From Deltaproteobacteria bacterium (GTDB lineage: Bacteria; Desulfobacterota; Deferrisomatia; Deferrisomatales; BM512): 64,000 nucleotides of DNA. Positions 287 to 25,532 of this stretch are shown here, piece after piece (position 1 is the stretch's first letter; the number at the start of each line of letters is the position of its first letter). Where the stretch lies: contig PKTT01000062.1 of assembly GCA_002869015.1 (NCBI GenBank), forward strand, positions 26,257-90,256. Direction: 5' to 3'. The notes below the pieces were generated by a model that was given only the letters and a program-made list of their open reading frames with translations, was not told the origin of the DNA and made no database searches. The position numbers and the translations under genes are program-made.

Positions 287-325
287 TTGCGAATCCTCTT
301 ATCTGTTAAATAATCTTAAGTTTCT

Positions 326-1339
326 TTACATGCTGCTGTATTTCTTGATTGCATTGCGGGCGAGATCGACGATCTTCTTGCCGTCAAAACCCTTGGCATC
401 CATATCCTTTATGTACTCGTCAACGACGGGGGCAACCGCTTTTTTCCAACGCGCAATCTCCTCATCGCTAAGAGTAATGGACTCGACGCCTTTCTCCTTG
501 GCGAACTCTCTGCCGATAACGTCGATCTTGTCCCAGGTCTCGGCTGTCATCTCAAACCATTCGTTGTTGATCTCTTCGATGATCTTCTGGTCAGCAGCGT
601 CGATGGAGTTCCAGCGGTCCTTGTTCATAACAACGTAAAAGCCACTTGCATACGCTACAGCCTGACTTTCAGTGGTGTACTTAATTGTATCGAAGAGCCT
701 GAAGCCTTTACCTGCCTCATAGGGGAAGGTGGCGCCGTCGACTACACCCTTGCTTAGCGCCTGATAGGTTTCGGGCATCGGCATAGCGACCGGTGTACCG
801 CCGAGGGCTGAGACGAGCTTTGCGGAGAAACCTGTGGCGCGCAGCTTAAGGCCCTTAAGGTCCTCAAGGGAGCGAACGGGCTTCTCTTTGGTGTGGACAA
901 GGCCGGGGCCGTGGGCGGTGATGTACATTACCTTGACGCCATCAAGCTCTTTTGGCTGTAAAGTATCGAAGACCTCTTTAATCATTTTGGAGGAGACTAC
1001 GCCATTTGGTGAACCGAGGGGCAGGTCTGCTACCTCCATAATCGGGAAACGGCCACGGGTGTAGGCGAAGAGCGACATGCCGATGTCCGTGATACCGTTC
1101 AAGACGCCGTCATACATCTGTGAGCCTTTGACAAGTGTCTGACCGGGGAACATCTGAATCATAATCCTCCCATCGGTACGCTTCTCGACCTCTTGGGCCC
1201 AGTCAGCCATCAGCTTGCTGTGTACATGCGTGGGAGGGAACATGTGGCTGTAAGTAAGTTGAAGAGCCGCGAATGACTGGGCGGCGAAGAAGGTTGTCAC
1301 AAAGAGTGCGAAGGTAATTGTTAAAAAACGTTTTGACAT
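326..1339 (-). CDS. TRAP transporter substrate-binding protein (DctP family)
   Basis: ORF 326..1432. Start moved to ATG 1339 (MSKRFLTITFALFVTTFFAAQSFA signal peptide, AGGAG RBS at 1349-1353). Sequence is typical of DctP-type periplasmic binding proteins. Confidence 0.85.
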   Translation of the reverse strand: MSKRFLTITFALFVTTFFAAQSFAALQLTYSHMFPPTHVHSKLMADWAQEVEKRTDGRIMIQMFPGQTLVKGSQMYDGVLNGITDIGMSLFAYTRGRFPIMEVADLPLGSPNGVVSSKMIKEVFDTLQPKELDGVKVMYITAHGPGLVHTKEKPVRSLEDLKGLKLRATGFSAKLVSALGGTPVAMPMPETYQALSKGVVDGATFPYEAGKGFRLFDTIKYTTESQAVAYASGFYVVMNKDRWNSIDAADQKIIEEINNEWFEMTAETWDKIDVIGREFAKEKGVESITLSDEEIARWKKAVAPVVDEYIKDMDAKGFDGKKIVDLARNAIKKYSSM

Positions 1340-1546
1340 TTCATAATCTCCTTTGGCTATGAATGAACGGGATGAACGTGCCATGGTATAAGCAACTGCA
1401 ACCCTTGTGCCTCCCTTATAATCAAACAGCATATTTTTTCAAAAAGCTTAATTTATGGGGATTCCGGAGCTCTTTGAGCAAAGTCCCTCGCTCGAACGTT
1501 TAAGCTAATAAAAACGAATGTAAAAAAGGCAAAGGACACCCCGAGC

Positions 1547-1569
1547 AAATGTAAAAGTTCTTTACATTT
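1547..1569. promoter_or_regulatory. Perfect 9-bp inverted repeat AAATGTAAA-N5-TTTACATTT, candidate operator in the TRAP/usp divergent intergenic region
   Basis: Read directly from the sequence. A half-site-like copy AATGTAAAA lies at about 1518-1526. The stem is too AT-rich to be a convincing terminator. Confidence 0.3.
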
Positions 1570-1698
1570 TTCCGCCACTCTCCCATGGGGCTGATTTAGC
1601 GCTGATCTATCTTGAGAATTTTTTTACGCCCCTCTCCCATAAGTAGTGTTGGGTGAATCGCAGCAAAAGCTCCTTCTCTTCGCGAACGGCATAATAAT

Positions 1699-1707
1699 TG
1701 CTATAAT
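1699..1707 (+). promoter_or_regulatory. Candidate extended -10 promoter (TGcTATAAT) for the usp gene
   Basis: TGCTATAAT lies 60 nt upstream of ATG 1767. The -35 region is poor (TTCGCG). Confidence 0.4.
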
Positions 1708-1766
1708 TTATCAATTGAGCGCATACTCAAAACCTAAAAACCAAGCTAGACCGACAGGAGTCAGAG

Positions 1767-2171
1767 ATGGACATAATGGCATGCTATGTAGATTCAGAGC
1801 TGGGCAATAAAGTGATTGAGGTGGCTACCTCCTATGCGAAAACTCTTGGAGCAAACCTCCACGTCGTCACCTCTCTTCCACAGAAGATTGAGCGGAACCT
1901 GCACGACCTCTCGGACCGAGAAGCCGCCCAGAAAAAGCTCTTGGAGGTCCAGGAAAAGGTAAAGGCCCAGGGTGTGGATTGCGTTGTCTCGCTACAGACT
2001 GATGACCTGTCAGATGGCGAAAATCTGGTTTCCTACGCTGAGCAGAACCCTATGGAGATGGTGGTTGTAGGCGTCCACCGGGTATCGAAGGTAGGCAAGC
2101 TAATTTTCGGCTCGACCGCTCAGCATGTAATTTTGAGCGCTCCCAGCTACGTGCTCTCCGTTAAGGTATAA
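1767..2171 (+). CDS. Universal stress protein (UspA family)
   Basis: 134 aa with the C-terminal Usp signature ...VVVGVHRVSKVGKLIFGSTAQHVILSAPSYVLSV. Confidence 0.8.
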   Translation: MDIMACYVDSELGNKVIEVATSYAKTLGANLHVVTSLPQKIERNLHDLSDREAAQKKLLEVQEKVKAQGVDCVVSLQTDDLSDGENLVSYAEQNPMEMVVVGVHRVSKVGKLIFGSTAQHVILSAPSYVLSVKV

Positions 2172-2288
2172 CAGGGGCATACTCCCACATCGAACCAAAC
2201 TCGGCTTTGCGGGAAACATTTGGATAAAAGGAGGCGTTCAAGCGCATCCTTTTCATATTCACAATCACATTAAAACTTCACAGGCTAA

Positions 2289-2819
2289 ATGATGCTTATA
2301 GAGTTTGAGGGCCGTAAACCGAAGATAGGGAAAAACGTTTTCATCGCTCCAACGGCGGTACTAATAGGTGACGTTGAGGTAGATGATGATTCATCCATAT
2401 GGTTCGGCGCGGTGCTTAGGGGAGACCTCGGGCCTATTCGGGTGGGTAAAAGATGCTCCATTCAGGATAATGTCTCAATACACGTCTTCGACACATCTCC
2501 CACGATCCTCCACGATGACGTAACAGTTGGTCACAACTGTGTTCTTGAGGGCTGCGAACTGGGCAGGGGCACGCTGATAGGGATGAACTCTACGGTGCTC
2601 CCATTCGCCAAGACCGGAGAAGAGCTTATGCTTGCCGCGGGGAGCGTCATCTCCGAAGGGGCAAACTTCGGCGATCGCCTACTGCTGGCTGGAGCTCCAG
2701 CGCGTGTAAAAAAAGAGCTCACCGGCAACGCGCTTGAGTGGACGAAGAGAGCCGCTAAAGATTATGTCTCTTTAAAGGGGAGATATTTGGCCCAAGGGAT
2801 AGGCAAAAAAGATATCTGA
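2289..2819 (+). CDS. Gamma-carbonic-anhydrase-like / hexapeptide-repeat (YrdA/PaaY-like) protein
   Basis: 176 aa. The left-handed beta-helix pattern (IGKNVFIAPTAVLIGDVEVDDDSSIWFGAVLRGD...IRVGKRCSIQDNVSIH) is typical of the gamma-CA family. Confidence 0.8.
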   Translation: MMLIEFEGRKPKIGKNVFIAPTAVLIGDVEVDDDSSIWFGAVLRGDLGPIRVGKRCSIQDNVSIHVFDTSPTILHDDVTVGHNCVLEGCELGRGTLIGMNSTVLPFAKTGEELMLAAGSVISEGANFGDRLLLAGAPARVKKELTGNALEWTKRAAKDYVSLKGRYLAQGIGKKDI

Positions 2820-2826
2820 TAAAGCT

Positions 2827-3468
2827 TCATCTGCCTACACAAGACAGCTCAAAATTCATTGCGGCAGCTTGATTTCTAGCCTCTGAAAGATCTCCCGGGT
2901 CATTTATATTGGTGAATGAGGTTAGCTCGGGGTCTATCTTGCGAAGCTCATCTAAATCGAGTATTTCAGCCCTTACCTTTTGGAATAGATGCTGTATCTT
3001 GAGGTCACCCAAAGATATCTGCCCAAGCATTGCCTGAAGGCATCCTACTCCGTAGAGGGCACAGAGGGGCTCATACCCCTTTTGCGTCTTTGGAACAACT
3101 ACATCACAACCAACGCGAAGCTCCCACAACCTCATCAAAAGCGCCTCTTTTATAAAGGGCATGTCACAGGCGATGCAGAGGACATGCCCCTCATCCCCCA
3201 ACTTTCTCCGGCAATAATCAAGCGCAGTTGCGATTCCACCCAGCGAGCCAGCGTTAACGTAAGCATCCCCTATGGTTTTAACACCTTTATAATCGAGCTT
3301 GGGGGTGCCTCCGACAACGACAACCTCCTTCGCAATCTTTGAAACTCTACCCCAAACGCGTTCAATAATTGGGATACCGGAGATCAGGAGTTCCGCTTTA
3401 TCCTCCCCCATCCTGCTTGATTTGCCCCCGGCCAGTATGGCTACAAGGGGAATTAATCCGTCACGCAT
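2827..3468 (-). CDS. mobA: Molybdenum cofactor guanylyltransferase
   Basis: 213 aa with the N-terminal nucleotide-binding motif LVAILAGGKSSRMGEDKAEL typical of MobA. Confidence 0.8.
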   Translation of the reverse strand: MRDGLIPLVAILAGGKSSRMGEDKAELLISGIPIIERVWGRVSKIAKEVVVVGGTPKLDYKGVKTIGDAYVNAGSLGGIATALDYCRRKLGDEGHVLCIACDMPFIKEALLMRLWELRVGCDVVVPKTQKGYEPLCALYGVGCLQAMLGQISLGDLKIQHLFQKVRAEILDLDELRKIDPELTSFTNINDPGDLSEARNQAAAMNFELSCVGR

Positions 3469-3609
3469 AAGTTACCCATGGCATAAAAAAGGGGGTGACA
3501 ATAGATAGCGGCATAGATATGGACTGTTGCGCCATGAAGAAGGTTAGCTTTCATGTATTTAGGTTATCTATTTAAATTTCAAGCTAGCCAGGTGTTTTAA
3601 GCCCCAACA

Positions 3610-3639
3610 AAAGAGCCCCCCATTAATGGAGGGCTCTTT
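3610..3639 (-). terminator. Rho-independent terminator after the ligase/molybdoenzyme operon (hairpin usable on both strands)
   Basis: AAAGAGCCC-CCCATTAATGGA-GGGCTCTTT hairpin with flanking A/T runs, 36 nt downstream of the stop at 3675. Confidence 0.55.
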
Positions 3640-3674
3640 TTGATCTTTAGTACTGTATGAACTTTTAAATATTT

Positions 3675-5729
3675 CTAGGCCCTGGCAACGTTGCACATAA
3701 GGGACTTCATGTCAGGGTATCCTAGAATTTTCTCTCGACAATCGGTGTCGGTCAGGAGGTTTGCGTTTTTCTCTCCCTCCCAGCCGTGCGGCACGAAGAC
3801 GATACCCTCACTAACACGCTCATCGATCCGCACCTTCATCTTAACCTGACCGCGATTCGTTGAGATAAGGGCGGTATCTCCGGTGGAGAGTCCATATTTT
3901 GCCCCAGTCTCCACGCCAAGCTCCGCAAAGGGCTCGGGGCTCTCGGTCACCAGCGCGTCTACGGCGCGGAACTGGCTATGTGTATAGTAATAATCCCTGT
4001 GCCCTGTAGAGAGGATAAGGGGGTATTTCTCCAAAAACTCAGGCTTCGAGCTTCTTGGGCTCCGCTCGGGCTCTATGTACTCCGGCAAGGGGTTTGCGCC
4101 GACATCGGCGAGCGCCTGGCTGTAAATTTCGATCTTGCCGGAAGGGGTCTTGAAGTAACGCCCGTTATCGGGGACTTCATACGCCTTATGGTTGTAGTAA
4201 GTGCCCTCGGGGGTCTCTGCCAAGAGCCCCTCGAAGGTCAAACCGGAGGGGTCGAGCTCGAAGCGAATGAGGTCTTCCTCTGTCTCCCAGGGGAAGTCCG
4301 CGCCAATGCCGAGGCGTTTTGCAAGCTCTGTGAAAACCCACCACTCCGAGCGCGACTCACCGATGGGCTCAATGCACTTCTTCCTTAACATGAGGTACGG
4401 CAAGCAGTGGCAGACGTTGTAAGTATAGGCAAGGCCCCACTTTTCAAGGTGTGAACAAGCAGGAAGGACGTAATGCGCTTCCTTCGCCGTTTCAGTAAGG
4501 AACATATCGTGGACGACGAGGAGCTCAAGTCGACGGAACGCCTCGCGGAAGGCGTTTGAGTCCGCCATTGATACAAGGGGGTTGCCGCCGACGACCCAGA
4601 ATGCCTTGATCTTGTCCGGGATTGACTCCGGCACTTTGGTGATGACGCCATACGGGCTCTTCCTGCCCCAAACTTCAATGAATAGGGGGTAATCGTCCAT
4701 GCCGAGGGGCTCGCCCTCCACATTCATGCCGACATTGCCAAAGAATGGGCGCGGGCTTATGACCCAGCCCCCGGGAACGTTGATATTACCCGTAATTATC
4801 TGAAGCACCGAGAAAGCGCGGCTGTTTTGCGTGCCGCCAGCTGTCTGGTCCTGCGTGCATGTACCCTGATAAATGCTTGCGCCCTTGGTTGTGGCGAACA
4901 TGCGGGCAAGCTCACGAATTTTTTCAGCTGGCACCCAGGTAATCTCTTCCGCCCACTCAGGGGTGAAGGGGCCGACGCTTTTGGCAAGCTCATCGTAGCC
5001 AATGGTATGCTTTTCAACGAACTCATGGTCTACGAGATCCTCATTTATAATGACGTTGATCATCGCCATCGCCATCGCGCCGTCGGTGCCGGGCCTTATC
5101 TTGAGATACATCTCGGCGTTGTCCGCCAGCGGTATACGGCGGGGGTCAATTACGACCAGCTTGGAGCCCTTGGCAAGGTTCTCCTCCAGGCGGAGCTTTA
5201 AGGGGAAGTCGCTTGCATCGGGGTTATGGCCCCAGAGGATATAGAGCTTTGAGTCAAGCTCCTCTGTGGGGTACTTGCCGAAGGTGATCTGGCGCGTACG
5301 GATACGCATGCGATAACAGACGCTCTCGACGGAGAAGAAGTTGGGGGAACCGAAGGCCGCCTTAAAGCGCTGGGTAAGCCCGGCCATCTCAAGATTTTCA
5401 ACTCCTATGGAGCCGCTGAAAACGCCCAGGGTCTGGGGGCCGAAGTCAGCTTTTAGCTGGAGAAGCTTTTCGGCGATCTCATCGAGAGCCTGTTCCCACG
5501 AGATCGGCACCAGCTCCCCATCCACCCGCTTCAGCGGTGTTTTCAACCGCTTGGGGCTGTAAATATGTGGCAACATCGCCTCGCCCTTTGGGCAAAGCTC
5601 GCCATTATTGATTGGATGGGCCTCAAGCCCCTCAACTTTTACCGCTACGCCGTCCTCAACGGTTACTCTTGTCCCGCAGCTGTGGTAGCAGAGGGTGCAG
5701 TCGGTGAGGATCTCTTTGACGTTGGACAT
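3675..5729 (-). CDS. Molybdopterin (bis-MGD, DMSO-reductase superfamily) oxidoreductase, cytoplasmic, single subunit
   Basis: 684 aa. N-terminal 4Fe-4S motif DCTLCYHSCGT...CPKG. MopB-type core and a C-terminal MGD-binding barrel (GDTALISTNRGQVKMKVRIDERVSEGIVFVPHGW). No twin-arginine signal peptide. Confidence 0.85.
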   Translation of the reverse strand: MSNVKEILTDCTLCYHSCGTRVTVEDGVAVKVEGLEAHPINNGELCPKGEAMLPHIYSPKRLKTPLKRVDGELVPISWEQALDEIAEKLLQLKADFGPQTLGVFSGSIGVENLEMAGLTQRFKAAFGSPNFFSVESVCYRMRIRTRQITFGKYPTEELDSKLYILWGHNPDASDFPLKLRLEENLAKGSKLVVIDPRRIPLADNAEMYLKIRPGTDGAMAMAMINVIINEDLVDHEFVEKHTIGYDELAKSVGPFTPEWAEEITWVPAEKIRELARMFATTKGASIYQGTCTQDQTAGGTQNSRAFSVLQIITGNINVPGGWVISPRPFFGNVGMNVEGEPLGMDDYPLFIEVWGRKSPYGVITKVPESIPDKIKAFWVVGGNPLVSMADSNAFREAFRRLELLVVHDMFLTETAKEAHYVLPACSHLEKWGLAYTYNVCHCLPYLMLRKKCIEPIGESRSEWWVFTELAKRLGIGADFPWETEEDLIRFELDPSGLTFEGLLAETPEGTYYNHKAYEVPDNGRYFKTPSGKIEIYSQALADVGANPLPEYIEPERSPRSSKPEFLEKYPLILSTGHRDYYYTHSQFRAVDALVTESPEPFAELGVETGAKYGLSTGDTALISTNRGQVKMKVRIDERVSEGIVFVPHGWEGEKNANLLTDTDCREKILGYPDMKSLMCNVARA

Positions 5730-5752
5730 TTCGGTTCTCCGTATACTCTTTT

Positions 5753-7381
5753 TTAATGAAGGCTTTCTTTAGCCGGGTTGTCTGTTGCTATCTCCACGAG
5801 GCCACCCTTACTGAAGCGGTTTATCTTTATTCCGCCGGGCATCCTCGGAAAATCATCAAGTATAAGCAATTCATCAGGCAGCTTGAATTTTGCGACCTTC
5901 CCCTTCATGAACTCACGTACCTCCGCCAGGGTCAACCCCTTATCCTTGTCGCGCAGCTTTGCGCAAACGCAGATTGACTCTCCTAGGACGGGGTTTGGGG
6001 TGCTCACTACGCTTACCTCTGCGATATTGCCCTGATCTACAAGGATAGCTTCAAGCTCGGAGGGAATAATCTTGAAACCGCCGCGGTTAATCCAATCCTT
6101 GAGGCGTCCCAGGATTTTGAAATTGCCGCTGGGTGACTTCACCCCCAGGTCTCCTGTATGGAGCCATCCATTAACCAACTGCTTTGTGGTCTCCTCAGGT
6201 TTATTCCAGTATCCCTTCATAACATGCCAGCCGGAGAGGATAATCTCGCCCTCCTCATTATCTCCCATCTCTTTTCCGGTTACGGGGTCAACTATCTTTA
6301 CGTCCGTACCGGGGATGGGCTTGCCAATGAAGTTCTCCCTAATCTCAAGGGGGGAACCATAGGGAAGTAGAATAGAGTTTCCGGGGCCGACCTCTGATGA
6401 GCCCAGGAAGGATGAGAGATAGACACCCATCTTCTCCTCTACATCTTTTATCAAACCTGCGGGAGCTATCTGACCCGCGATCATACCGGCGCGCAGGGTT
6501 GAGAGGTCATAATCCTCCCTATCCTTAGCGGCAAGCTCCATTAGGTAGTGCGCCGGAGCGCCCGGCTGAAGGGTTATCTTCTCACGCTCGATTAGCTTAA
6601 AAGCTTCGGTTGGGTTAAAGGCGTCCATCATTACCACGGTAGCGCCCAAGACAAGAGGCTGCACGAGCAAGGCGCCGCAGCCGTAGGAGTGGCCCATCGG
6701 CAGAAAACCAAGGAAGATATCTTCCTCGGTGGCGTCAACGCAAAGAGAGTAGGAGAGGCCGGCGCATAGCACCTGCGACTGTCCAATCATCGCGCCCTTG
6801 GGTTTACCCGTCGTACCGGAGGTATAGAGCAGCATCGAGAGATCGTCCGGCTTTACATCCTGCTCCTCATGGGGAACTGAAGCTGCATCTGATGATGCCA
6901 ATTCCCCGAATGACCTTACTCCATCCACACCACCAAAAGTGTCATCGGAGACTACTATCACATGCTCAAGGTCTGGCAGAGAACCTTTTAGGCTAAGGAG
7001 AGAGTCTTTATAATTGAATTTCTGCCAACTTTCGAATGCGAAAACGACCTTGGCCTTGGAGTCGCCCAGGATAAAGGAGGACTCCTTCTCCCTGTAGGCA
7101 GGGTTAATCCACGCCACGGCAACTCCCAGCTTCTGCAAAGCATAGAAGGCCAGGTTGAGCTCCAGCGAGTTAGGCATATAGATCGCCGCCATATCACCTT
7201 TTTTGAAACCGAGAGCATAAAGAGCGTTTGCGAGCTTGCCGGCCCGCTCCTTAAGGTCACTGAAGGTCATACGTTCATCACTCAGGATGAAAACTTCTTT
7301 TTCGGGGAGTCTTTCGGCGGTTTTTGTAACTTGGTCCCAGATGTTTAAGGACGCTAATGGTGCGTATGGTGTGTTATCCAT
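5753..7381 (-). CDS. AMP-forming acyl-CoA (aryl-CoA?) ligase
   Basis: 542 aa. AMP-binding signature LLYTSGTTGKPKGA, and later GWLHTGDLG and GRLKDWINRGGFKI motifs. Confidence 0.85.
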   Translation of the reverse strand: MDNTPYAPLASLNIWDQVTKTAERLPEKEVFILSDERMTFSDLKERAGKLANALYALGFKKGDMAAIYMPNSLELNLAFYALQKLGVAVAWINPAYREKESSFILGDSKAKVVFAFESWQKFNYKDSLLSLKGSLPDLEHVIVVSDDTFGGVDGVRSFGELASSDAASVPHEEQDVKPDDLSMLLYTSGTTGKPKGAMIGQSQVLCAGLSYSLCVDATEEDIFLGFLPMGHSYGCGALLVQPLVLGATVVMMDAFNPTEAFKLIEREKITLQPGAPAHYLMELAAKDREDYDLSTLRAGMIAGQIAPAGLIKDVEEKMGVYLSSFLGSSEVGPGNSILLPYGSPLEIRENFIGKPIPGTDVKIVDPVTGKEMGDNEEGEIILSGWHVMKGYWNKPEETTKQLVNGWLHTGDLGVKSPSGNFKILGRLKDWINRGGFKIIPSELEAILVDQGNIAEVSVVSTPNPVLGESICVCAKLRDKDKGLTLAEVREFMKGKVAKFKLPDELLILDDFPRMPGGIKINRFSKGGLVEIATDNPAKESLH

Positions 7382-7608
7382 TGGGGGCCTCGTCTCATCT
7401 AGTAAAACATTATTTCATTTATGTATTTTCGAATTCTACCATCACCCCCTCCCCTGTCAAGGGAAAAGTATCCTTTCTCATCATGGGCCAAAATTCGATT
7501 GCCTCACAAATTATTTGCTTACAATACGCTTTTTTACTTGTTTTCACATGTGTCGGCCTATGCTGGGGCTGCTCTTTGGCCAATTATCTCTCCACTTACA
7601 CTTACATG

Positions 7609-7637
7609 TTGACAGCTAATAATTGAATGGGTAGTTT
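7609..7637 (+). promoter_or_regulatory. Candidate sigma-70 promoter of the IclR-family gene (TTGACA-17 nt-TAGTTT)
   Basis: TTGACA at 7609-7614, 17-nt spacer, TAGTTT at 7632-7637, 55 nt upstream of ATG 7693. Confidence 0.35.
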
Positions 7638-7646
7638 AGAAATAAA

Positions 7647-7663
7647 GTTTCATTTAATGAAAC
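7647..7663. promoter_or_regulatory. Palindrome GTTTCAT-TTA-ATGAAAC, candidate IclR-type operator (site 1)
   Basis: Perfect 7-bp arms just downstream of the candidate iclR promoter, in the ligase/iclR divergent region. A near-identical site lies at 19149-19163. Confidence 0.45.
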
Positions 7664-7692
7664 GCTCTTCTTCTTAAGGAGCTTATTCATAC

Positions 7693-8505
7693 ATGGATTC
7701 GCAGTCAAAACAACGAAGCGTGACAAACGGTAGGTACAACATAAGGGCGATAGAGCGCGCAATTGCGATACTCAATCTTTTTTCGCGAGAGCGCAGCCTC
7801 ATGACCCTTGACGAGATAACACGCGACACGGGGCTCTCAAAATCCACAGCCTTCAGGGTTCTAGCGACCCTTGAGCAGCACGGCTACGTAGTAATTGATG
7901 AAAGCACGGGCAAGTACCGCCTGGGGGCGATCTTCCTCTCCCTTGGCGCGGCCGTGCTGACCTCAACGAATCTGCGTAAAATAGCAAGTCCTTTTCTAAA
8001 CAGGCTAAAAAACAAATTAAACGTTACGGTCCTACTTGGCGCACCAGTCGATGGCTCCCTTGTCTACATTGACAGGAAGGAAGCGCCGGGCCCCTTGCAC
8101 ATCTCATCGGACATCAGCTGGCGGCGTGACCCGATACATTACGGCATGCTTGGCATGGTGCTCCTCTCCTCCTGGGATGACGAAGAGATATCAGAATATC
8201 TAAAGGAAAATAAGCTAATCGCGTATACCAAAAACAGCCTTACAAAAGTCGATCAGTGGCTTCAAAGGGTAAAGGAGATACGCGAGGCGGGCTACGTAGT
8301 TGAATTTGAAGAGGCGATAGAGGGCGTGTGGGGAGTTGCAGCTCCGGTAAAGAACTCCAACGGTGAAGTGGTAGCCGCAGTTGGTGTTGCACAGCCAATC
8401 TCTGCCAAGAACTCCGTATTGGTATCAGAGACAATCGGCTCCGTCACCCGCTGCGCAGAGGCTATATCATCCGAGCTCGGATACCGCTCCGCTAGCAACT
8501 TCTAA
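7693..8505 (+). CDS. IclR family transcriptional regulator
   Basis: 270 aa. N-terminal wHTH (AIERAIAILNLFSRERSLMTLDEITRDTGLSKSTAFRVLATLEQHGYV) and an IclR effector domain. Confidence 0.85.
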   Translation: MDSQSKQRSVTNGRYNIRAIERAIAILNLFSRERSLMTLDEITRDTGLSKSTAFRVLATLEQHGYVVIDESTGKYRLGAIFLSLGAAVLTSTNLRKIASPFLNRLKNKLNVTVLLGAPVDGSLVYIDRKEAPGPLHISSDISWRRDPIHYGMLGMVLLSSWDDEEISEYLKENKLIAYTKNSLTKVDQWLQRVKEIREAGYVVEFEEAIEGVWGVAAPVKNSNGEVVAAVGVAQPISAKNSVLVSETIGSVTRCAEAISSELGYRSASNF

Positions 8506-8593: not shown

Positions 8594-9181
8594 TCAGCCG
8601 ACATCCTCAAAGGAGCGGGCAAGCACATAAGCTGCCTGCAGCGCCGAGGTTGGGCAGAGCGGGAAACATTCCTTACAATCCCAGCACTCTTTGGCTGCTA
8701 TCTCAGGGATAAAGCTTATCTCCCGGCTGGCACCCTGATCAACGAAGGTGACCGCATTTTTCCCCTTTATCTCATCGCAGTAGCGCACACAGAGTCCACA
8801 ATGAATACAAAAGGATGACTCTCTGCGATATTTCTCGGGGTCTGCTTTGTACTCCTTTGCCATCTCAGCAAGGTCATGGGAGTCGGGGGCATGTGCCAGC
8901 ATCAACTCCAATATTGTCTTTCTGATCTGGTCAATCTTCTCGGAGCGTGTGCGTACAACAATATCTGCTTCCACCGGGTAAACGCAGCCCACAACGTACT
9001 TGGTGCGGCCCCACGCCTCAACCTCCACCGTGCAGACGCGGCAACCGCCGTAAGGCTCCAGCTTGTCATGGTGACAAAGGGTGGGTATCTCAACCCCCAC
9101 TGTGCGGGCGGCTTCCAGGAGCGTCATGCCTTCTGTGGCTGCGACTTCTTTGCCATCTATCGTTAAGCGGACTTCACTCAT
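8594..9181 (-). CDS. bamI: Class II benzoyl-CoA reductase subunit BamI-like (NuoG N-terminal type 2Fe-2S/4Fe-4S protein)
   Basis: 195 aa. The N-terminus (RLTIDGKEVAATEGMTLLEAARTVGVEIPTLCHHDKLEPYGGCRVCTVEV) is typical of the NuoG/HydC N-terminus. Last gene of the bamB-I syntenic block. Confidence 0.75.
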   Translation of the reverse strand: MSEVRLTIDGKEVAATEGMTLLEAARTVGVEIPTLCHHDKLEPYGGCRVCTVEVEAWGRTKYVVGCVYPVEADIVVRTRSEKIDQIRKTILELMLAHAPDSHDLAEMAKEYKADPEKYRRESSFCIHCGLCVRYCDEIKGKNAVTFVDQGASREISFIPEIAAKECWDCKECFPLCPTSALQAAYVLARSFEDVG

Positions 9182-9217
9182 CTTAAATGCTTTCTCTTGT
9201 CAGGCCCTCTACAGGGC

Positions 9218-10903
9218 TCAGTTTGCCTCAATAGCGCAGTCGCCTGCGGGGCACTTCTTCTCATTGATATGCGCTTCGTACTCGGCTTTGAAATACCTTA
9301 GCGCGCTCCGCAATGGGTCCGGCGCCGTCTTCCCCAAGGAACAGAGAGAAGCCACAGACATGGTGTCTGCAATCTCCTCCAGCCGCTCTATGTCTCCCGG
9401 CCTGCCCTCGCCGCTGCAAATATCATTTAAGATATTCAGCATCTGGCGCATACCCTCTCGGCATGGTGTGCATTTGCCGCAGGACTCCTTGGTGAGGAAT
9501 TCGACGAAGTAGCGGGTAAGGGACACCATGCAAGTCTCATCGTCGATAACGAGCAGTGCGCCTGCGCCCATTGGCGCCCCAAGCTTACCAAGCTCATCGA
9601 AATCGAGGGGGGTGTCTATCATGTCGCCGGGTATAGAGCCGCCCATCGGCCCGCCAAAGTGGACCGCTTTTAACTTCTTACCGTTAGCGACGCCGCCGCC
9701 GATGGTCTCCACCACCGTTTTGAGCGATGTGCCCATCTCAACCTCGACAACGCCTATATTTCGCGCACTGCCTGAGAGGGAGATAAGCTTGCTCCCATTT
9801 GACTTCTCGGTGCCCATGCCGGCGAACCACTCTACGCCGTTATTTATTATGTAGGGTACATTGGCCCAGGTCTCTACGTTGTTTAAATTGCTGGGCATGT
9901 CGTTTACGCCGCTGACCGAGGTGCGCACATACTTGGGGCGCGGCTCCGGCATGTTTCCTTCCAGCGACCGCATCAGCGCGCTCGATTCTCCGGATACGAA
10001 GATGCCGACATCGAAATGCACCTCTACATCAAAGTCAAATCCAGAGCCGAGGATGTCATTGCCAAGCAGCCCCGCCTCACGCGCCTGTTCAAGGGCTCTA
10101 TTGAGGTTAGCCAGAAGCATCGGGCTGTCATGACGGGTATAGATGAAGCCCTTGGTTGCGCCTATAGCGCGAGCTCCGATAATCAGCCCCTCAAGAACGA
10201 GGTGTGGGTTGCCGGTGAAAAGTGCCCTGTCCATGAAAGCACCTGGTTCGCCCTCATGCCCGTTTACTATCACGTACTTCTCTTCGCCGGGGGCATTGCG
10301 TGTTGTCTCCCACTTCCGGCCCGCCGGGAAACCGCCACCCCCCCTGCCCCTCAAATTGGACTCTTTAACTTCATCCAATATAGCTTCAGGGGTCATGGCG
10401 AAGAGCGCCTTTGAAAGAGCAGCGTACCCACCTATAGCCAGATAGTCCTCAAGGCTCGTGGGGTCGATGCGTGCGTTGTCACCTATGAGAATTCTCGATT
10501 GCTCACGGTAGAAGGGAATTTTATCAAGGGCCTCTACGCGCTCACCCGTATCGGGGTCGGCGTAGAGAAGTCGCTCAATTGGTTTTTCGCCATTGGCAAC
10601 CTGAGAGACAATCTCGGCCGCGTCATCAGCGCCTACCTGGACGTAACATATATTTGAGGGGTTTACGATTACCACAGGCCCCATTTCACAAAAGCCGAGG
10701 CAGCCTGTTGCCATAACCCTTACCTTGCCTTCAAGCCCCTGCGCCTTCACCTCTTTTTCAAAGGCGTCAACTACCGCCCCGTTACCCAGAGCGTGGCAGT
10801 TGGGAGCAGCGCATATGGCAATTGAGGACGCTTTGGGGTCGCGAGCCTCTAAAATGGCTTTACGAATCTCTTCAAGTTTCTCGGGCGAGCCGATCCTTTG
10901 CAT
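9218..10903 (-). CDS. bamH: BamH-like NAD(P)H-binding flavoprotein (NuoF/HydB family)
   Basis: 561 aa. NuoF motifs (GRGGGGFPAGRKWE, ESCGKCTPCREG) plus an N-terminal thioredoxin-like Fe-S domain. Confidence 0.85.
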   Translation of the reverse strand: MQRIGSPEKLEEIRKAILEARDPKASSIAICAAPNCHALGNGAVVDAFEKEVKAQGLEGKVRVMATGCLGFCEMGPVVIVNPSNICYVQVGADDAAEIVSQVANGEKPIERLLYADPDTGERVEALDKIPFYREQSRILIGDNARIDPTSLEDYLAIGGYAALSKALFAMTPEAILDEVKESNLRGRGGGGFPAGRKWETTRNAPGEEKYVIVNGHEGEPGAFMDRALFTGNPHLVLEGLIIGARAIGATKGFIYTRHDSPMLLANLNRALEQAREAGLLGNDILGSGFDFDVEVHFDVGIFVSGESSALMRSLEGNMPEPRPKYVRTSVSGVNDMPSNLNNVETWANVPYIINNGVEWFAGMGTEKSNGSKLISLSGSARNIGVVEVEMGTSLKTVVETIGGGVANGKKLKAVHFGGPMGGSIPGDMIDTPLDFDELGKLGAPMGAGALLVIDDETCMVSLTRYFVEFLTKESCGKCTPCREGMRQMLNILNDICSGEGRPGDIERLEEIADTMSVASLCSLGKTAPDPLRSALRYFKAEYEAHINEKKCPAGDCAIEAN

Positions 10904-10912
10904 ATTCTGTCC

Positions 10913-11365
10913 TTACTTGACGTTTTTCAGCACGTCTTCGGTTTTACTCGGAGCAAGCCGTCCATGATATTGGCCGTCCACCATCATCACGGGACCAAGC
11001 GAGCAAGCGCCCATACAGTTGACCGCAGTTAAACTGAATTTTGATTCGCTGTCTGTCTCTCCGGGGCGAATACCGGCAACCTCATACACAGTGTCGAGCA
11101 CCTTCTGCGCGCCGCGAAGGTGGCAGGAAGTTCCGGTGCAGACATGGAGCTCATGGTCACCCTTTGGCACAAGGCTGAAAGTCTTATAAAAAGCGGCTAT
11201 CTGTTGAACTTTGGCCAATGGAACCCCCAGCCGCTCGCTGACCCTCTCCAATGCCTCCTTCGGCAGCCAGCGGTTGTGATGCTGGATGTCCATGAGGATC
11301 ATAATGAGCGCCCTTGGCTTGGCCTCAAATTTATCAATGATCTGGTCGATCTTATCCTGAGTCAT
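10913..11365 (-). CDS. bamG: BamG-like 2Fe-2S protein (NuoE/HoxE family)
   Basis: 150 aa. NuoE pattern HELHVCTGTSCHLRGA...CMGACSLGPVMMVDG. Confidence 0.85.
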   Translation of the reverse strand: MTQDKIDQIIDKFEAKPRALIMILMDIQHHNRWLPKEALERVSERLGVPLAKVQQIAAFYKTFSLVPKGDHELHVCTGTSCHLRGAQKVLDTVYEVAGIRPGETDSESKFSLTAVNCMGACSLGPVMMVDGQYHGRLAPSKTEDVLKNVK

Positions 11366-11382
11366 ATCCTGAACCTCGTCGC

Positions 11383-12159
11383 CTAAACCGCTTTGGCCAA
11401 GCGGAACCGCTTATCGTCTTCGTTGTAACGGACAAGCCCGTGTTTAGCCGAGTTACCTATGTGCCGGGCAACCTCTGAAGTGCTCATACCCAAAGCTTCG
11501 GCCAACTCGGCTGCGTTGCTGGCTGATTTAGCCAACTGAGTGAGGATGAGGCTTACAGCAAGCTTGTCGCCAACCAAATCCTTGAGCAGCCGCTCAACGT
11601 CAGGAGAGTTGAAATACTCGGCATACTTCTCCGCCGTATCGAAGCGCACTCTAAGCCGTTCGCGCTCAACGAGGCGCACATTGGGCAGAAGCCTGTTTAA
11701 AGCCTCGAAACGCTCGGTGAGCTGTTCGGGTGTTATTCCTTCACCCTCCCCGAGGGGGCCAAGCTCTTTAATCTGCGAGCTGAAATCATTTACGGTCTGA
11801 ACAAAGCGGAGTCCCTCACCCGCTGACATCTGCGCTATACGCAAACGCCTTGGGTCAATTCCAACGAAACCTAGCAGCTTTTTGCAAAGCTCGACCATGT
11901 GAGCCGCATGGTAATTGCCGCCGGTGTCGTAATGGCAATCCCCGAGATGGCAACCGCCAATCAGGACGCCGTCCTTGCCGTTTGTAAATGCCCGTATCAC
12001 ATGAGAGAGGTCGACTCTCCCGGTACACATGATGCGGATAAGCTTTATATCTGTTGCATATTGGAGTCTGGACACGCCAGCCAGGTCAGCAGACCCGTAC
12101 GCTCACCAATTGCAGACAAAGCCCAGAATGTCGGGCCGGTGTGAGAAGCTGGTTCCCAT
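11383..12159 (-). CDS. bamF: BamF-like MvhD-type protein, predicted selenoprotein (in-frame TGA at 12103-12105) with a C-terminal wHTH-like extension
   Basis: The ORF track starts at GTG 12075. The same frame continues upstream through one TGA to ATG 12159 (AAGGAG RBS at 12166-12171): MGTSFSHRPDILGFVCNW-TGA-AYGSADLAGVSRLQY.... This aligns with the MvhD N-terminal motif FCCNWC(T/S)YGGADxAG, with the TGA at the second Cys. Confidence 0.75.
12064..12096 (-). promoter_or_regulatory. Candidate SECIS hairpin downstream of the bamF UGA
   Basis: The mRNA from 7 nt after the UGA reads GGGUCUG-CUGACCUGGCUGGCGUGUC-CAGACUC. It forms a 7-bp lower stem (one G-U pair) with further GAC/GUC pairing possible. 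Hand-folded only. Confidence 0.35.
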
Positions 12160-12216
12160 TTTTATCTCCTTAAAAATTAAACTGCACTTACCTGAAACTG
12201 TTACCGGGATGCGCTA

Positions 12217-15200
12217 CTACGCAGCATCTATCTGCGAGGCTATCTCGCACTCGGTATAATGCTTTAGATCTACTGCTCCCGTGGGGCACTTAGTGTTGCA
12301 AAGGCCATCGCCCTTACAGAGGACCGGATTTACCCTCGCCTTCTTGCCTGCCGGGGTATCGTGGAACTCAATGGCGTTGTAGCTGCAAGCTGTTATACAC
12401 GCGCCGCATGAGATGCAGTCTGACTCTGCGACCTGGGCTACCGCGCCGGAGGCGCTCACCGCGTCTTTCGCCAAAACGTTTACCGCACGTCCTGCAGCGC
12501 CGAAGGCCTGGCTTATAGCTTCTGGAATTCGCTTCGGGTAATGGGCGCTGCCACAAAGGAAGACTCCATCGGCGGCAAAATCCACCGGGCGAAGCTTTAC
12601 GTGAGCCTCCTGGAAAAAACCGTCTGGATTGAGCGACACCTTGAACTGGCGCGCAGCCTCCTGGCTTCCCTCTGAGGGGACCACCGCCGCAGCCAGCGTA
12701 ACCAGGTCAACATCAATTTCGAGCATCTTCCCAAGGATCGGGTCCGGCACCCTCAGCTTAAGCGCCGAGCCGCCCTCCTCAACTTGAGGCTTTGCATCGG
12801 GCTCATAGCGGATGAATTTGACGTCCATACCGGCGGCTTCGCGGTACGCCTGCTCCGCCATGCCATAGGTGCGCATATCCCTGTAAATGACATAGACCTC
12901 TCTCTTGGGGTCGGATTTTTTGAGGGCTATTGCGTTTTTAACGGACTGGGTGCAGCAGAGGCGGCTACAGTAATTGCGCTCCTCATTACGACATCCTACG
13001 CACTGGATCATAGCCACGCTCTTAGCGCTATCAACCAGCTCGGAGCCCCCGTCCATCGCAGCTTCCAGCTCAAGGGAAGTTAGCACCCTCTCGCTCTCTC
13101 CGTACAGGTACTCGGTAGGCTTGTGCTCATCTGCGCCTGTAGCGAGAACCGCTACGCCGTGGGCTATGTTTCTAGTCCTGCTGCCTGTACGTACAGTCGT
13201 ATTGAAGTCACCGATGTAGCCTGTGACCTGGGTTATTCTGGAGTCAGTCCATACATGTATTAATGGGTTTTTATAGACCGCATTGATTAGACCATCTATG
13301 TGGGACTGAACATCCATCCCCTCAAGCGTTGTGGGCACCCTTCGCGCCATACCGCCAAGGTCCTTATCCTTTTCAACCAGATAAACCTCAAACCCCTGGC
13401 TCGCCATGCTTAGCGCAGTGGTCATGCCTGAAAGGCCACCGCCCACTACCAGCCCGGCTTTGTTCACAGGCAGCTCATACTCAGGCAATGGCTCCAAAAG
13501 CGCGGCGCGAGAGACAGACATGCGCACTATCTCTTTGGCTTTGGCAGTTGCGGCCTCTTTCTCTCTCGAATGGACCCAGGAGCAATGCTCGCGTATGTTC
13601 GCCATCTCATAGAAGTAGGGGTTTATTCCGCCCTCCCGGCAGGTATCGCGGAAGAGGGGCTCGTGGGTACGAGGAGTGCATGCCGCGACGACGACTCTGT
13701 TAAGGTCCTTATCTCGAATCTGGTCGGAGATATCCTTTGCATTCTCCGTCGAACAGGCAAAGAGGCTCTCCTGCGCATGGACGACATTGCCAAGCGTGGA
13801 TGCATACTCTACGACCGAGGGCACATCGACCACGCGGCCTATGTTCGCGCCGCAATGGCATACGAACACGCCAATCTTTAGCTCCTCGCCTGAGGTATCC
13901 TTCTCTTCAGGATATACTCGCTCACGGGAGAGTTTGCCTCTGCGGTAGGAGAGCAACTGGCTGCAAAGAGCGTCCGCTCCGCTGGCGGCTACAACGGACT
14001 CCGGTATATCGAGAGGGCCGGTGAAAGCGCCGCTGACGAAGATGCCCGGGCGGCTTGTTTCAATGGGGTTCTCCGGCTTGGTCTTGCAAAAACCATATTC
14101 GTTGAGCTCTACTCCAAAGGTATCCGCCAGCTCTTTGACGTTCTCGGTGGGGTTTATACCAACCGAGAGCACTACCAGATCAAACTCCGCCTCTTTGACC
14201 CCATCATCTGGAGTTGAGTAGCGGATGGTAAGATTTTTTGTTTCAGGATCTTCGCCCGCCATTGAAACGTAGCTGCGAATGAACTCGACGTCGGAGAGGT
14301 TCTCTGCGCGCTGGTAGTAGCGCTCGAAGTCCTTGCCGAAGGCGCGGATATCATTGTGAAAGACAGTGGCTTTGATTTCGGCGTCGTGGTCTTTTGCCAA
14401 GATCACCTGCTTTTGAGTGTAAGCACAGCAAACCGCCGAGCAGTAGCTGTTGCCTCCGGGGCGAACTTGGCGGGAGCCAACGCACTGAATCCAACCTATT
14501 TTCTCGGGGTGCTTTCCATCTGAAGGGCGGCGGATGTGTCCGTCATAGGGGCCAGTGGAGCAGAGTATACGCTCAAAGTCGAGGCTCGTTACCACGTTCT
14601 CCATGGTTCCATAGCCATAATCGCCTCGAAGCGAGGGGTCGAACACCTCATACCCCGGCGATAGCAGCACTGCTCCCACGCTAAGCTGCTCCAGCTTGAC
14701 GCTCTGGTGGAGGTCAATGGCGTTGTGTTTGCAAACTCCGCTGCAAATTGTGCACTTCTCCCCCTGGAGATACAGGCATTTATCAGGATCGACGTAAGTG
14801 ACCAGCGGAACAGCCTGGGAGAAGTATATGTGAACAGCCTTGTTTTCAGAGAGGTTCTGGTTGTAGGGGTCCGGCACCTTCGCGGGGCAGTACTCCACGC
14901 AGACACCGCAGCCGGTGCACTTGTTTTCGATTATGTAGCGTGGCTTTCTCGCCAAGGTGATTTTGAAATCACCGGCGTGGCCGCTCACATCGCGCACCTC
15001 TGTGTAGGTCAGAATCTCTATATTTGGGTGACGGCTGCACTCAATGAACTTCGGCGACTCAATGCACATCGAACAGTCATTGGTGGGGAAGGTCTTGTCC
15101 AACTGCGCCATCTTGCCGCCGATGGAGGGGGCCTTGTCCACCAGCACCACCCTGAACCCCGCGTCACCGAGGTCAAGGGCAGCCTGTATGCCGCTGATAC

Positions 15201-15282: not shown

Positions 15283-15343
15283 GTCTATTCTTCCTTTAGC
15301 GGGACGAATCCCTAAGGGTTACTGCTAAAACGCATAGCCTCAT

Positions 15344-16507: not shown

Positions 16508-16522
16508 TCGTTTCTTAAGTGG

Positions 16523-17074
16523 TTAAGCGGATTTCTTGGCCATGGTGGCGACCGATTTCACCACTTCTTCAAGCCCGTATCGTTTAACCAGATATTCGAG
16601 CCCAATCTCTTTTTCTCCGCGTTCTGGTGTTATGGAGTCCTCGGCCTCAACCTGGTATTCGTGGTAGGTAAGCGCGCCCGGGTGGCAGACCTGTACGCAC
16701 ATCGGCTCACCGATGTCCAGGCTCTCGCACATATCACACTTTAGAGGAAGGCCTGAATCCGGCTCCGTAAAACGGGAGCGTGACGGGCACGAGGCGGGGC
16801 AGAGAAGACAAGACTCATACTCTTTGCCATCTATTGTGTATTTGTTTCGCCCAGCACATTCAGCCTCGGCGTAATCTCCCGCCCTGATGGGTATATAAGC
16901 GTCGGTGGACTCATCAATGACCACGGTGATACGGGAGCGGGCCGGGTTAACGCTTGTATAGGGAGGCATTGCGTGGGCTGCGGAGCAGCTCATCTCGCAG
17001 CTGAGACACCCATTACATTTATTTACGTCGACACGGATCTCTTTGATCGTCTTCATCTTCTTATTTTCTTTCAT
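16523..17074 (-). CDS. bamC: BamC-like 4Fe-4S cluster protein
   Basis: 183 aa. CNGCLSCEMSCSAAH and further Cys clusters. GGAGA RBS. Lies immediately downstream of the AOR-type subunit. Confidence 0.8.
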   Translation of the reverse strand: MKENKKMKTIKEIRVDVNKCNGCLSCEMSCSAAHAMPPYTSVNPARSRITVVIDESTDAYIPIRAGDYAEAECAGRNKYTIDGKEYESCLLCPASCPSRSRFTEPDSGLPLKCDMCESLDIGEPMCVQVCHPGALTYHEYQVEAEDSITPERGEKEIGLEYLVKRYGLEEVVKSVATMAKKSA

Positions 17075-17132
17075 TTAACTTTCTCCATAACCACCGGCGC
17101 TTCTTTGGCGCGCAGCGTCAGGGTGCGAACGA

Positions 17133-24006: not shown

Positions 24007-24008
24007 AG

Positions 24009-25508: not shown

Positions 25509-25532
25509 CCGTCTCAAGAGAGGAAACTCACC

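Follow-up and report, generated by a model that had tools for sequence, protein, structure and literature searches.

A cytoplasmic molybdopterin enzyme encoded with a coenzyme A ligase beside benzoyl-CoA reductase genes: a candidate hydroxybenzoyl-CoA dehydroxylase

What reaction is catalyzed by a molybdopterin enzyme whose gene directly follows that of a coenzyme A (CoA) ligase, close to the genes of anaerobic benzoyl-CoA reduction? The question is raised by a locus on contig PKTT01000062.1 of a Deltaproteobacteria bacterium (order Deferrisomatales), of which a stretch of 64,000 nucleotides (nt), referred to below as the window, was analyzed. The enzyme, which we call MopB after its superfamily, is of the type that carries a bis(molybdopterin guanine dinucleotide) (bis-MGD) cofactor. 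We infer, tentatively, that MopB is a reductive dehydroxylase of hydroxybenzoyl-CoA that feeds the class II benzoyl-CoA reductase (Bam) encoded nearby; this reading is quite possible, and we rank it first. The locus itself is best explained if the ligase and MopB constitute one catabolic unit under a divergent regulator of the IclR family. Its features are as follows.

2827 to 3468, minus strand: MobA-like nucleoside triphosphate transferase, 213 amino acids (Pfam NTP_transf_3, PF12804, 1.4e-33)
3605 to 3640, minus strand: intrinsic-terminator-like hairpin with a T-run, closing the ligase-MopB unit
3675 to 5729, minus strand: MopB, predicted cytoplasmic bis-MGD-type enzyme, 684 amino acids (Pfam Molybdop_Fe4S4, Molybdopterin, and Molydop_binding)
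5753 to 7381, minus strand: AMP-forming acyl/aryl-CoA ligase, 542 amino acids (Pfam AMP-binding and AMP-binding_C)
7433 to 7460, minus strand: sigma-70-like promoter, TTGACA-16-TAGAAT with an extended TG (11 of 12 positions; consensus match only)
7693 to 8505, plus strand: IclR-family regulator, divergent from the ligase-MopB operon (Pfam HTH_IclR and IclR_C)

The stop codon of the ligase gene is separated from the start of the MopB gene by 23 nt, and a GGAG is present within this gap. The promoter-like site is located upstream of the ligase gene, inside a 311-nt divergent region common to the IclR gene. Approximately 40 to 70 nt past the MopB stop, there is a GC-rich hairpin, AGAGCCCTCC-ATTAAT-GGGGGGCTCT, followed by TTTTGTT. 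From the promoter-like site to the terminator, the ligase and MopB genes form a bicistronic unit. The MobA-like gene begins 206 nt downstream of the MopB stop. All top NCBIfam matches of its product are MobA models, all below their cut-offs (89.7 against 151.85 for TIGR02665), and the protein probably supplies the MGD form of the cofactor. The same gene order, with a 99% identical MopB, was found on contig PKTU01000072 from a metagenome-assembled genome (MAG).

The N terminus of MopB reads MSNVKEILTDCTLCYHSCG, with a CxxCxxxC motif that begins at residue 11. Because the motif opens so close to the start, there is no space for a twin-arginine (Tat) signal, and a cytoplasmic location is predicted. 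By Pfam, no gene for a DmsB/PsrB-type Fe-S subunit or a membrane anchor was seen beside the ligase-MopB pair in the window. An earlier note, made from the DNA sequence, had described these two reading frames with their 23-nt spacing, the cysteine motif, the absence of a Tat signal and of electron-transfer or membrane partner genes, and a terminator and mobA after the MopB gene; all of this was confirmed. Its description of the enzyme as "lone" was correct for the window locus but too narrow in two respects: MopB belongs to a large conserved family, and Fe-S proteins of Bam are encoded 3 kb away.

The domain content of the protein (PF00384, 6e-48; PF01568, 4.4e-19; both above the gathering scores) places it in the MopB superfamily. 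Four cysteines for the Fe-S cluster FS0 (C11, C14, C18, and C46) and a fifth one, C138, occur without exception in the 39 family members compared; in alignments, their counterparts in acetylene hydratase, FdhF, and PsrA are the cysteines that hold the cluster and the metal. Judged from this alignment, Cys138 is the predicted Mo/W ligand; it is part of the motif C138-Y139-R140-x-R142, which is invariant in the family apart from Y139 (38 of 39 members). Y15 is conserved in 36 members, with Val in the other 3, and H16 in 38. Arg327, the candidate for the conserved formate dehydrogenase Arg, is Arg in 24 of the 39, and its alignment with that residue is unstable. None of the curated NCBIfam models reached its cut-off, the best being formate dehydrogenase alpha (TIGR01591, 363 bits against 666.25). 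The closest solved structures by sequence profile were FdhF of the hydrogen-dependent CO2 reductase (HDCR; 7qv7, 2.2e-85), acetylene hydratase (8e-82), and PsrA (7e-77). An AlphaFold model (predicted local distance difference test, 82.6; predicted template modeling score, 0.87) matched MopB structures with template modeling (TM) scores of 0.8 to 0.87, acetylene hydratase coming first, ahead of formate dehydrogenases, Nap, and PsrA. A hint at the cofactor comes from the MobA-like and FdhD genes that adjoin the MopB gene in several loci.

Five further cysteines, at window MopB residues 291, 425, 440, 442, and 452, are kept in the core family within the motifs GTCTQDQT, LPACSH, YNVCHC, and KKCIEP, which are mostly absent from a sister group with 46 to 48% identity. 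They may form an additional metal site or serve as redox-active thiols near active-site loops.

Three known functions were considered for MopB and rejected. With cytoplasmic formate dehydrogenases (FdhF of HDCR, Escherichia coli FdhH, and FdsA), which are among its best sequence-profile matches, MopB shares the FS0 cluster with a Lys/Arg behind its fourth Cys, the use of Cys as the metal ligand, and FdhD genes nearby. Unlike them, it has Tyr139 in place of the catalytic His after the ligand in 38 of 39 members and an unconserved Arg position; TIGR01591 stays below cut-off, and FdhF lies outside the MopB clade described below. A PsrA/PhsA-type reductase was rejected given the missing Tat signal, the absence of PsrB/PsrC partner genes, a PhsA model score of 281 against 694, and the position of PsrA outside the clade. 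The closest known enzyme in structure is acetylene hydratase of Pelobacter acetylenicus (2e7z; TM 0.87, E 5.5e-52), which resembles MopB in its size, in being a single cytoplasmic subunit, and in having one [4Fe-4S] cluster near the N terminus and a metal-binding Cys. However, a strict acetylene hydratase was also rejected. The sequence identity is 34%, and Asp13 of the hydratase, which stands beside the second FS0 cysteine and activates the W-bound water, corresponds to Tyr15 followed by His16. The hydratase is nearer to other paralogs (40 to 42% identity) than to the window MopB family and belongs to a separate clade in a distance tree without support values. Moreover, the genomic context of the MopB family consists of CoA ligases and Bam genes and not of acetylene use.

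This neighbor-joining tree was built from 105 MopB-like sequences of the analyzed loci together with acetylene hydratase, FdhF, and PsrA, the latter three rebuilt from pairwise alignments. In the tree, the MopB family and its 46 to 48% sister group form a clade of their own, which is sister to a large radiation holding acetylene hydratase; FdhF and PsrA are outside both. The earlier note had named a comparison with characterized clades as the way to check its proposal, and in this distance-based comparison MopB does not fall into the FdhF or PsrA branches. Loci of Dehalococcoidia, Desulfitobacterium, Desulfosporosinus, and Selenomonadales (L046, L048, L051, L055, L065, L066, L070, and L078) carry tandem arrays of two to three cytoplasmic MopB paralogs, most of which (those of L065 excepted) are placed within the acetylene hydratase radiation.

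Close relatives of MopB number in the hundreds at 70 to 84% identity. In species-representative genomes, the close set (57 to 85% identity) is found in Deferrisomatales (85%), Geobacter/Geotalea, Syntrophus, Desulfobacterales, Desulfatiglandales, Desulfohalobiaceae, Actinomycetota, Dehalococcoidales, and Bacillota. It is followed by a gap, with a few Dehalococcoidia loci at 41 to 48% and other MopBs down to 31 to 36%. Upon clustering at 50% identity, the whole core collapsed into one representative, and the next one was 42% identical. Named hosts that degrade aromatic compounds include Geotalea toluenoxydans, Desulfocastanea catecholica, Desulfobacula, and Syntrophus. In source annotations, the relatives carry either a generic name ("molybdopterin oxidoreductase") or a misleading one ["formate dehydrogenase (coenzyme F420) alpha subunit"]. 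A full-text literature search retrieved no paper on this family or on MopB enzymes coupled to a ligase. Thus, while the fold and the cofactor are already known, the clade, its coupling to a CoA ligase, and its linkage to Bam are not described in the literature found.

A possible member of the family is Gmet_1810 of Geobacter metallireducens, annotated as "Molybdopterin oxidoreductase Fe4S4 region" and 2-fold up-regulated on benzoate. It is part of the benzoate-induced bamB2/bamC2 cluster Gmet_1795-1810, which also contains moeA-3 and a radical S-adenosylmethionine (SAM) gene (PMC1924859). Its radical-SAM and molybdenum cofactor neighbors resemble those of one of the MopB loci analyzed here (L167).

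What surrounds the ligase-MopB operon? The following genes of the window bear on its function.

326 to 1432, minus strand: solute-binding protein DctP of a tripartite ATP-independent periplasmic (TRAP) transporter; dctQM continue beyond the window start
8594 to 19049, minus strand: bamIHGFEDCB, a class II (tungsten, ATP-independent) benzoyl-CoA reductase set, identified by Pfam and located beyond the IclR gene
38902 to 40236, minus strand: PaaK-like CoA ligase of a phenol-carboxylation cluster, orthologues of which (53 to 57% identity) adjoin MopB orthologues elsewhere

In addition to this PaaK-like ligase, the window encodes phenylphosphate-synthase-like genes, four UbiD paralogs with UbiX, and a haloacid dehalogenase-type (HAD) protein. 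No xanthine oxidase (XO)-family domain was found by Pfam in any window open reading frame (ORF) of at least 120 amino acids, and no HcrABC-type genes were seen there. The same scan bears out the earlier note, which had seen in the window genes for phenol-type carboxylation and benzoyl-CoA reduction without HcrABC. In the phenol cluster of Desulfatiglans anilini, a PaaK-like ligase, taken as 4-hydroxybenzoyl-CoA ligase, is encoded beside XO-type reductase genes (PMC6114531). In contrast, the phenol cluster of the window has the PaaK-like ligase without an XO-type reductase.

To describe the context of MopB in other genomes, we collected 36 loci seeded with MopB, 33 of which contain close orthologues (at least 57% identity). 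ORFs were called by a simple longest-ORF rule, and the genes within two positions of MopB in the 33 loci, which include MAG contigs of unequal length, were scanned against Pfam. The most common neighbor was an AMP-binding ligase (12 loci), followed by a short-chain dehydrogenase/reductase (SDR; 8), IclR (5), FdhD (4), and a metallo-beta-lactamase fold (4). An aldehyde ferredoxin oxidoreductase-type protein (AFOR; BamB), sigma-54 activators, and a phosphotransacylase together with an acetate/butyrate-kinase family protein were found in 3 loci each. TRAP subunits, major facilitator superfamily (MFS) transporters, AFOR, and more ligases recur at a distance of three to five genes. XO-type or DmsB/NrfD-type genes were not among the recurrent neighbors at either distance.

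In several loci, MopB is part of recognizable operons. In L165, the order IclR-MopB (73% identity)-bamB-C-D-E-F-G-H-I runs in one direction, MopB and bamB being 86 nt apart; the gene of the orthologous ligase is divergent and stands beside a second IclR gene, an acetylene-hydratase-like MopB, and an Amidohydro_2 gene. The Amidohydro_2 family includes hydroxybenzoate decarboxylases. In L166 (the same locus as L007), the operon bamB-bamC-thioesterase (hotdog)-IclR-ligase'-MopB' (307 to 8027, minus strand) is located back-to-back with an orthologous ligase-MopB-IclR group. Here, MopB' is 35% identical to the window MopB, and the top model of ligase' is 2,3-dihydroxybenzoate-AMP ligase (365 bits against a cut-off of 723.55). 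In L167, an MFS gene is followed by IclR-ligase divergent from SDR-MopB, with FdhD, radical-SAM, and TRAP genes near. In two further loci, L020 and L022, bamF is immediately followed by MopB, and no bamGHI were seen there. In Geobacter and Geotalea toluenoxydans, the ligase is absent and butyrate-kinase-like and phosphotransacylase-like genes are located upstream of MopB, with a MobA-like gene, or FdhD and MobA, downstream. The kinase and the phosphotransacylase constitute a nonhomologous route to acyl-CoA.

A reciprocal scan of 80 metagenome loci seeded with the ligase identified IclR and TRAP DctP as its most constant neighbors. MopB orthologues (46 to 73%) adjoin the ligase in 8 of these loci and acetylene-hydratase-like MopBs (30 to 33%) in several more, while PaaK-like ligase orthologues (53 to 57%) adjoin in 6, including one PaaK-like ligase-MopB-SDR operon. 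Such orthologues occur together with MopB in L019, L033, L089, and L124. Overall, one ligase family is found beside three different MopB clades. Acetylene-hydratase-like paralogs (30 to 32% identical to the window MopB) flank members of the ligase family in L165 (1756 to 7270, minus/plus strands; the same as L097), L085, L118, and L119, with up to three MopB genes per 15 kb in such loci.

The ligase has the domains of the ANL superfamily (PF00501 AMP-binding, 2.9e-83; PF13193 AMP-binding_C, 8.6e-09). No NCBIfam model reached its cut-off; the benzoate-CoA ligase family TIGR02262 scored 200.5 bits against 375.25. Its closest Protein Data Bank matches are salicylate-AMP ligase and 4-coumarate-CoA ligases, and its orthologues adjoining MopB orthologues are 51 to 63% identical to it. 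One homologue is named "LbuL" by NCBI, and no relevant paper was found for this name.

Four observations, namely, the orthologous ligases beside MopB, the activation genes of Geobacter, the paralogous ligase-MopB pairs, and the association of one ligase family with three MopB clades, lead us to argue that these MopBs act downstream of carboxylate activation, on acyl-CoA or in its immediate pathway. This pathway can be assigned to anaerobic aromatic-acid catabolism on the basis of the IclR regulators, the TRAP/MFS uptake genes, the Bam genes, and the (de)carboxylases of the UbiD and Amidohydro_2 types. The same data speak to the least likely of the alternatives we considered, in which MopB has nothing to do with aromatic catabolism and stands beside the ligase by chance or through shared regulation, being, for instance, an unusual enzyme that uses ferredoxin to reduce an inorganic oxyanion or a sulfur compound, or else a divergent formate dehydrogenase. 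Some orthologues are indeed solitary beside housekeeping genes (aconitase and a metallo-beta-lactamase-fold gene), MopB is roughly equidistant from the FdhF, PsrA/PhsA, DmsA, and NasC models, and 70 to 85% conservation across phyla is typical of central enzymes. However, an orthologous ligase adjoins MopB in 12 of the 33 loci, by our estimate far more often than expected for a family that accounts for less than 1% of genes, and the pairing is repeated with paralogous MopB clades and with nonhomologous activation genes. Nitrite reductase, sulfur-metabolism, or formate-transport genes were not found among the recurrent neighbors, and all equivalog models score far below cut-off. We therefore consider a function outside aromatic catabolism improbable.

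What, then, would MopB do to the acyl-CoA? A single Fe-S cluster and the lack of dedicated electron-transfer or membrane partners suit a soluble enzyme that would receive its electrons from ferredoxin. They fit poorly with an oxidative hydroxylase, for which a strict anaerobe would need a high-potential acceptor. The contrast between D. anilini, with its PaaK-like ligase and XO-type reductase, and the window, with its ligase alone, together with the context described above, leads us to rank a reductive dehydroxylase first. In the scheme we propose, an aromatic carboxylate, most likely a hydroxylated benzoate, would be imported, perhaps via the adjacent TRAP system, and converted by the ligase to its CoA thioester. 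MopB, as a soluble Mo- or W-bis(MGD) enzyme with a single [4Fe-4S] cluster reduced by low-potential ferredoxin, would then strip a ring hydroxyl, and the resulting benzoyl-CoA or less substituted benzoyl-CoA would pass to the neighboring class II benzoyl-CoA reductase. The CoA-ester substrate, the direction and type of the reaction, the ferredoxin donor, and the choice of hydroxybenzoyl-CoA are all inferred. 4-, 3-, or 2-hydroxybenzoyl-CoA, gentisyl-CoA, and protocatechuyl-CoA are candidate substrates. As for uptake, several of the nearest solved TRAP-binding proteins may bind aromatic acids, a point that was not counted as evidence.

Several observations weigh against a dehydroxylase acting with the ligase. 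The MopB orthologue is solitary in Deferrisoma camini and in one 6.5-Mb complete genome. Among 46 nonredundant MopB places, a sample that is partly ligase-seeded and hence biased, an acid-activating gene is present within 8 kb in 22 and Bam genes in 10; neither ligase nor Bam genes were found at this distance in 9 of the 21 well-flanked places. About a quarter of loci have an SDR neighbor, for which a simple dehydroxylation has no role. The window ligase belongs to a diverged subgroup with 51 to 54% identity to the rest of its family, and the divergences of ligase and MopB are weakly correlated (r of 0.43 in the core set and ~0 overall); because of this weak correlation, coevolution of the two was not counted as support. 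Finally, the bis-MGD dehydroxylases known so far act on catechols, while isolated phenols are handled by XO-family enzymes. The aryl-CoA (de)hydroxylase proposed in the earlier note is partly supported: the recurrent ligase coupling, the Bam and PaaK-like links, and the position outside the FdhF and PsrA branches speak for it, the SDR neighbors and the solitary orthologues against it.

The SDR genes suggest a different reaction. MopB might add water or a hydroxyl to an acyl-CoA with an aryl-alkyl side chain (phenylacetyl-CoA) or an alicyclic ring, with the SDR oxidizing the alcohol or reducing the product; alternatively, it might shift a hydroxyl as transhydroxylase does. An SDR is the second most common close neighbor (8 of 33 loci) and is mostly located directly downstream of MopB; the arrangements MopB-SDR-acyl-CoA dehydrogenase-ligase (L017) and PaaK-like ligase-MopB-SDR (L124) were observed; acetylene hydratase, the top fold match, is a nonredox hydratase; and the family is linked to a PaaK-like ligase, nominally a phenylacetate-CoA ligase. 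Pairs of MopB enzymes and SDRs are known from ethylbenzene dehydrogenase with 1-phenylethanol dehydrogenase and from pyrogallol transhydroxylase with phloroglucinol reductase. Yet in the window no SDR adjoins, and the catalytic Asp13 of acetylene hydratase is replaced by Tyr. An oxidative hydroxylation would have to pass its electrons to a high-potential acceptor, for which no partner gene is present; enoyl-CoA hydration normally proceeds without a Mo/W enzyme; and the neighboring SDRs match generic models only. On balance, a hydratase or hydroxylase working with an SDR appears unlikely.

The MopB genes at the head or tail of bam operons raise another possibility. MopB may be a redox module of Bam that docks to BamF (MvhD-like) or to BamI, in which case the combination of BamI and MopB would be similar to FdsA of NAD-dependent formate dehydrogenases. 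MopB would then provide an extra entry or exit of electrons for the bifurcating Bam complex through the redox chemistry of a small molecule, while the ligase would be of the benzoate type and belong to the same regulon. Bam has been purified from G. metallireducens and Desulfosarcina cetonica, reportedly without a MopB subunit, which argues against such a module. In its favor, the MopB gene heads bamBCDEFGHI in L165 and directly follows bamF in L020 and L022, Bam genes are present within 8 kb in 10 of the 46 places, the full length of MopB aligns to the catalytic part of FdsA-type enzymes (6tg9, residues 252 to 927), and FdhD, the formate dehydrogenase sulfurtransferase, recurs near MopB. The molybdenum need of Desulfococcus multivorans for growth on benzoate, as related in a passage of PMC1924859, would agree with it as well. 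On the other hand, the active site does not look like that of a formate dehydrogenase (Tyr for the catalytic His in 38 of 39 members, Arg position unconserved), many MopB orthologues have no Bam genes nearby, and in the window MopB is encoded apart from the bam genes, in an operon that has a promoter and a terminator to itself. No BamB of D. camini appeared among the 120 best BamB relatives. We regard a Bam module as even less likely than a hydratase. Probability beyond that given to the dehydroxylase, the SDR-associated hydratase, the Bam module, and a housekeeping function was assigned to explanations outside these readings.

If MopB is a reductive dehydroxylase, how would it relate to known enzymes? 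The proposed reaction type, ferredoxin-dependent reductive dehydroxylation of an aryl-CoA feeding into benzoyl-CoA, is that of HcrABC/PcmRST. These enzymes differ in fold, in their molybdenum-molybdopterin cytosine dinucleotide cofactor, flavin adenine dinucleotide, and [2Fe-2S] clusters, and in having three subunits, and such domains are absent from MopB and from the window. A more specific proposal, which we hold to be somewhat doubtful, is that MopB is the first bis-MGD enzyme acting on a benzoyl-CoA-type thioester and the reductive dehydroxylase of obligate anaerobes for which no gene has been assigned, i.e., a soluble, ferredoxin-driven, ligase-coupled alternative to HcrABC. The candidate substrates would be 3-hydroxy-, 2-hydroxy-, gentisyl-, protocatechuyl-, or 4-hydroxybenzoyl-CoA. 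In Bam, the metal of the active-site subunit, BamB, is tungsten and not molybdenum. An alternative to HcrABC of this kind could account for the molybdenum need of D. multivorans on benzoate, which has no other explanation if its ring reductase uses tungsten. That requirement was reported earlier and is cited, in the passage referred to above, by Butler et al. (PMC1924859).

Catechol dehydroxylases (Dadh) and pyrogallol-phloroglucinol transhydroxylase are, like the proposed MopB dehydroxylase, bis-MGD enzymes that remove or move aromatic hydroxyls, and the former occur as expanded paralog sets, as do the MopBs around the ligase here. Their substrates are free catechols and polyphenols; most of them are exported by the Tat system and have Fe-S and membrane partners, and they are not known to be linked to CoA ligases. 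MopB differs from the catechol dehydroxylases of gut Actinobacteria in lacking a Tat signal and Fe-S or membrane partner genes, and the transhydroxylase is a weak match to it (72 bits). PadBCD (phenylacetyl-CoA:acceptor oxidoreductase), a molybdenum-iron-sulfur enzyme of the MopB superfamily, follows a PaaK-type ligase in its pathway and has an aromatic acyl-CoA as its substrate. It is an oxidative, membrane-bound enzyme of three subunits, and the ligase-MopB locus lacks genes similar to those of PadC and PadD. The earlier note had called a ligase-coupled enzyme of this kind acting on an aryl-CoA undescribed. This holds insofar as no paper on the family was found, and it needs narrowing, as PadBCD is already known to act on an aryl-alkyl-CoA. 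A relationship of the gut-bacterial catechol dehydroxylases to acetylene hydratase has itself been reported (eLife 2020; PMC7028382).

MopB is a credible, unproven candidate for the absent step that funnels substituted benzoates into benzoyl-CoA. To our knowledge, dehydroxylation of 3-hydroxybenzoyl-, salicylyl-, gentisyl-, and protocatechuyl-CoA was measured in extracts of strict anaerobes in the 1990s, and genes were never assigned to these activities; one discrete, conserved, and widespread MopB family now offers a concrete candidate gene. Cultured hosts exist (Geotalea toluenoxydans, Desulfocastanea catecholica, and Deferrisoma camini). If MopB is a dehydroxylase, CoA thioesters would be a new substrate class, possibly with a new mechanism, for the acetylene-hydratase-like Mo/W branch, and metagenome annotation would improve for genes now labeled "formate dehydrogenase" or "selenocysteine-containing dehydrogenase." A role as a Bam module would, in turn, call for a revised view of how ATP-independent ring reduction is energized.

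Further observations were made on other genes of the window. The bamF gene (11383 to 12159, minus strand) contains an in-frame TGA at 12105-12103, and the listed ORF, with its GTG start, is cut short. Read from the upstream ATG at 12159, the sequence MGTSFSHRPDILGFVCNW-TGA-AYGSADLAG continues in frame through the TGA into the FlpD/MvhD domain, which makes the window bamF product a probable selenoprotein. BamF of Geobacter likewise carries selenocysteine. Just upstream of bamB, there is a metallo-beta-lactamase-fold gene (19442 to 20347, minus strand), and genes of this fold recur beside MopB orthologues (L013, 13030 to 13968; L081, 8820 to 9662; L167, 14918 to 15643).

Between the phenylphosphate synthase genes and the UbiD genes, two flavin-related genes are located (46989 to 48623, minus strand), one encoding a CTP-dependent riboflavin-kinase domain fused to a HAD phosphatase and the other a PNPOx-like flavin protein; the pair may help to provide the four UbiD paralogs with their cofactor, prenylated flavin mononucleotide. 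At 30164 to 32631 (plus strand), genes for a RACo-type reductive activator of corrinoid proteins and a DUF1638 protein have no evident methyltransferase alongside. A resistance-nodulation-division efflux system (21207 to 29042, plus strand) lies between the bam and phenol genes and comprises two outer-membrane-factor genes, a 1,169-amino acid pump, and a CusB-like fusion protein with a heavy-metal-binding domain. A giant protein of more than 1,741 amino acids (58750 to 63975, minus strand) contains approximately ten Big_9/cadherin-like repeats, and the G+C content around its gene is 0.60 to 0.62, compared to ~0.50 to 0.55 in other parts of the window.

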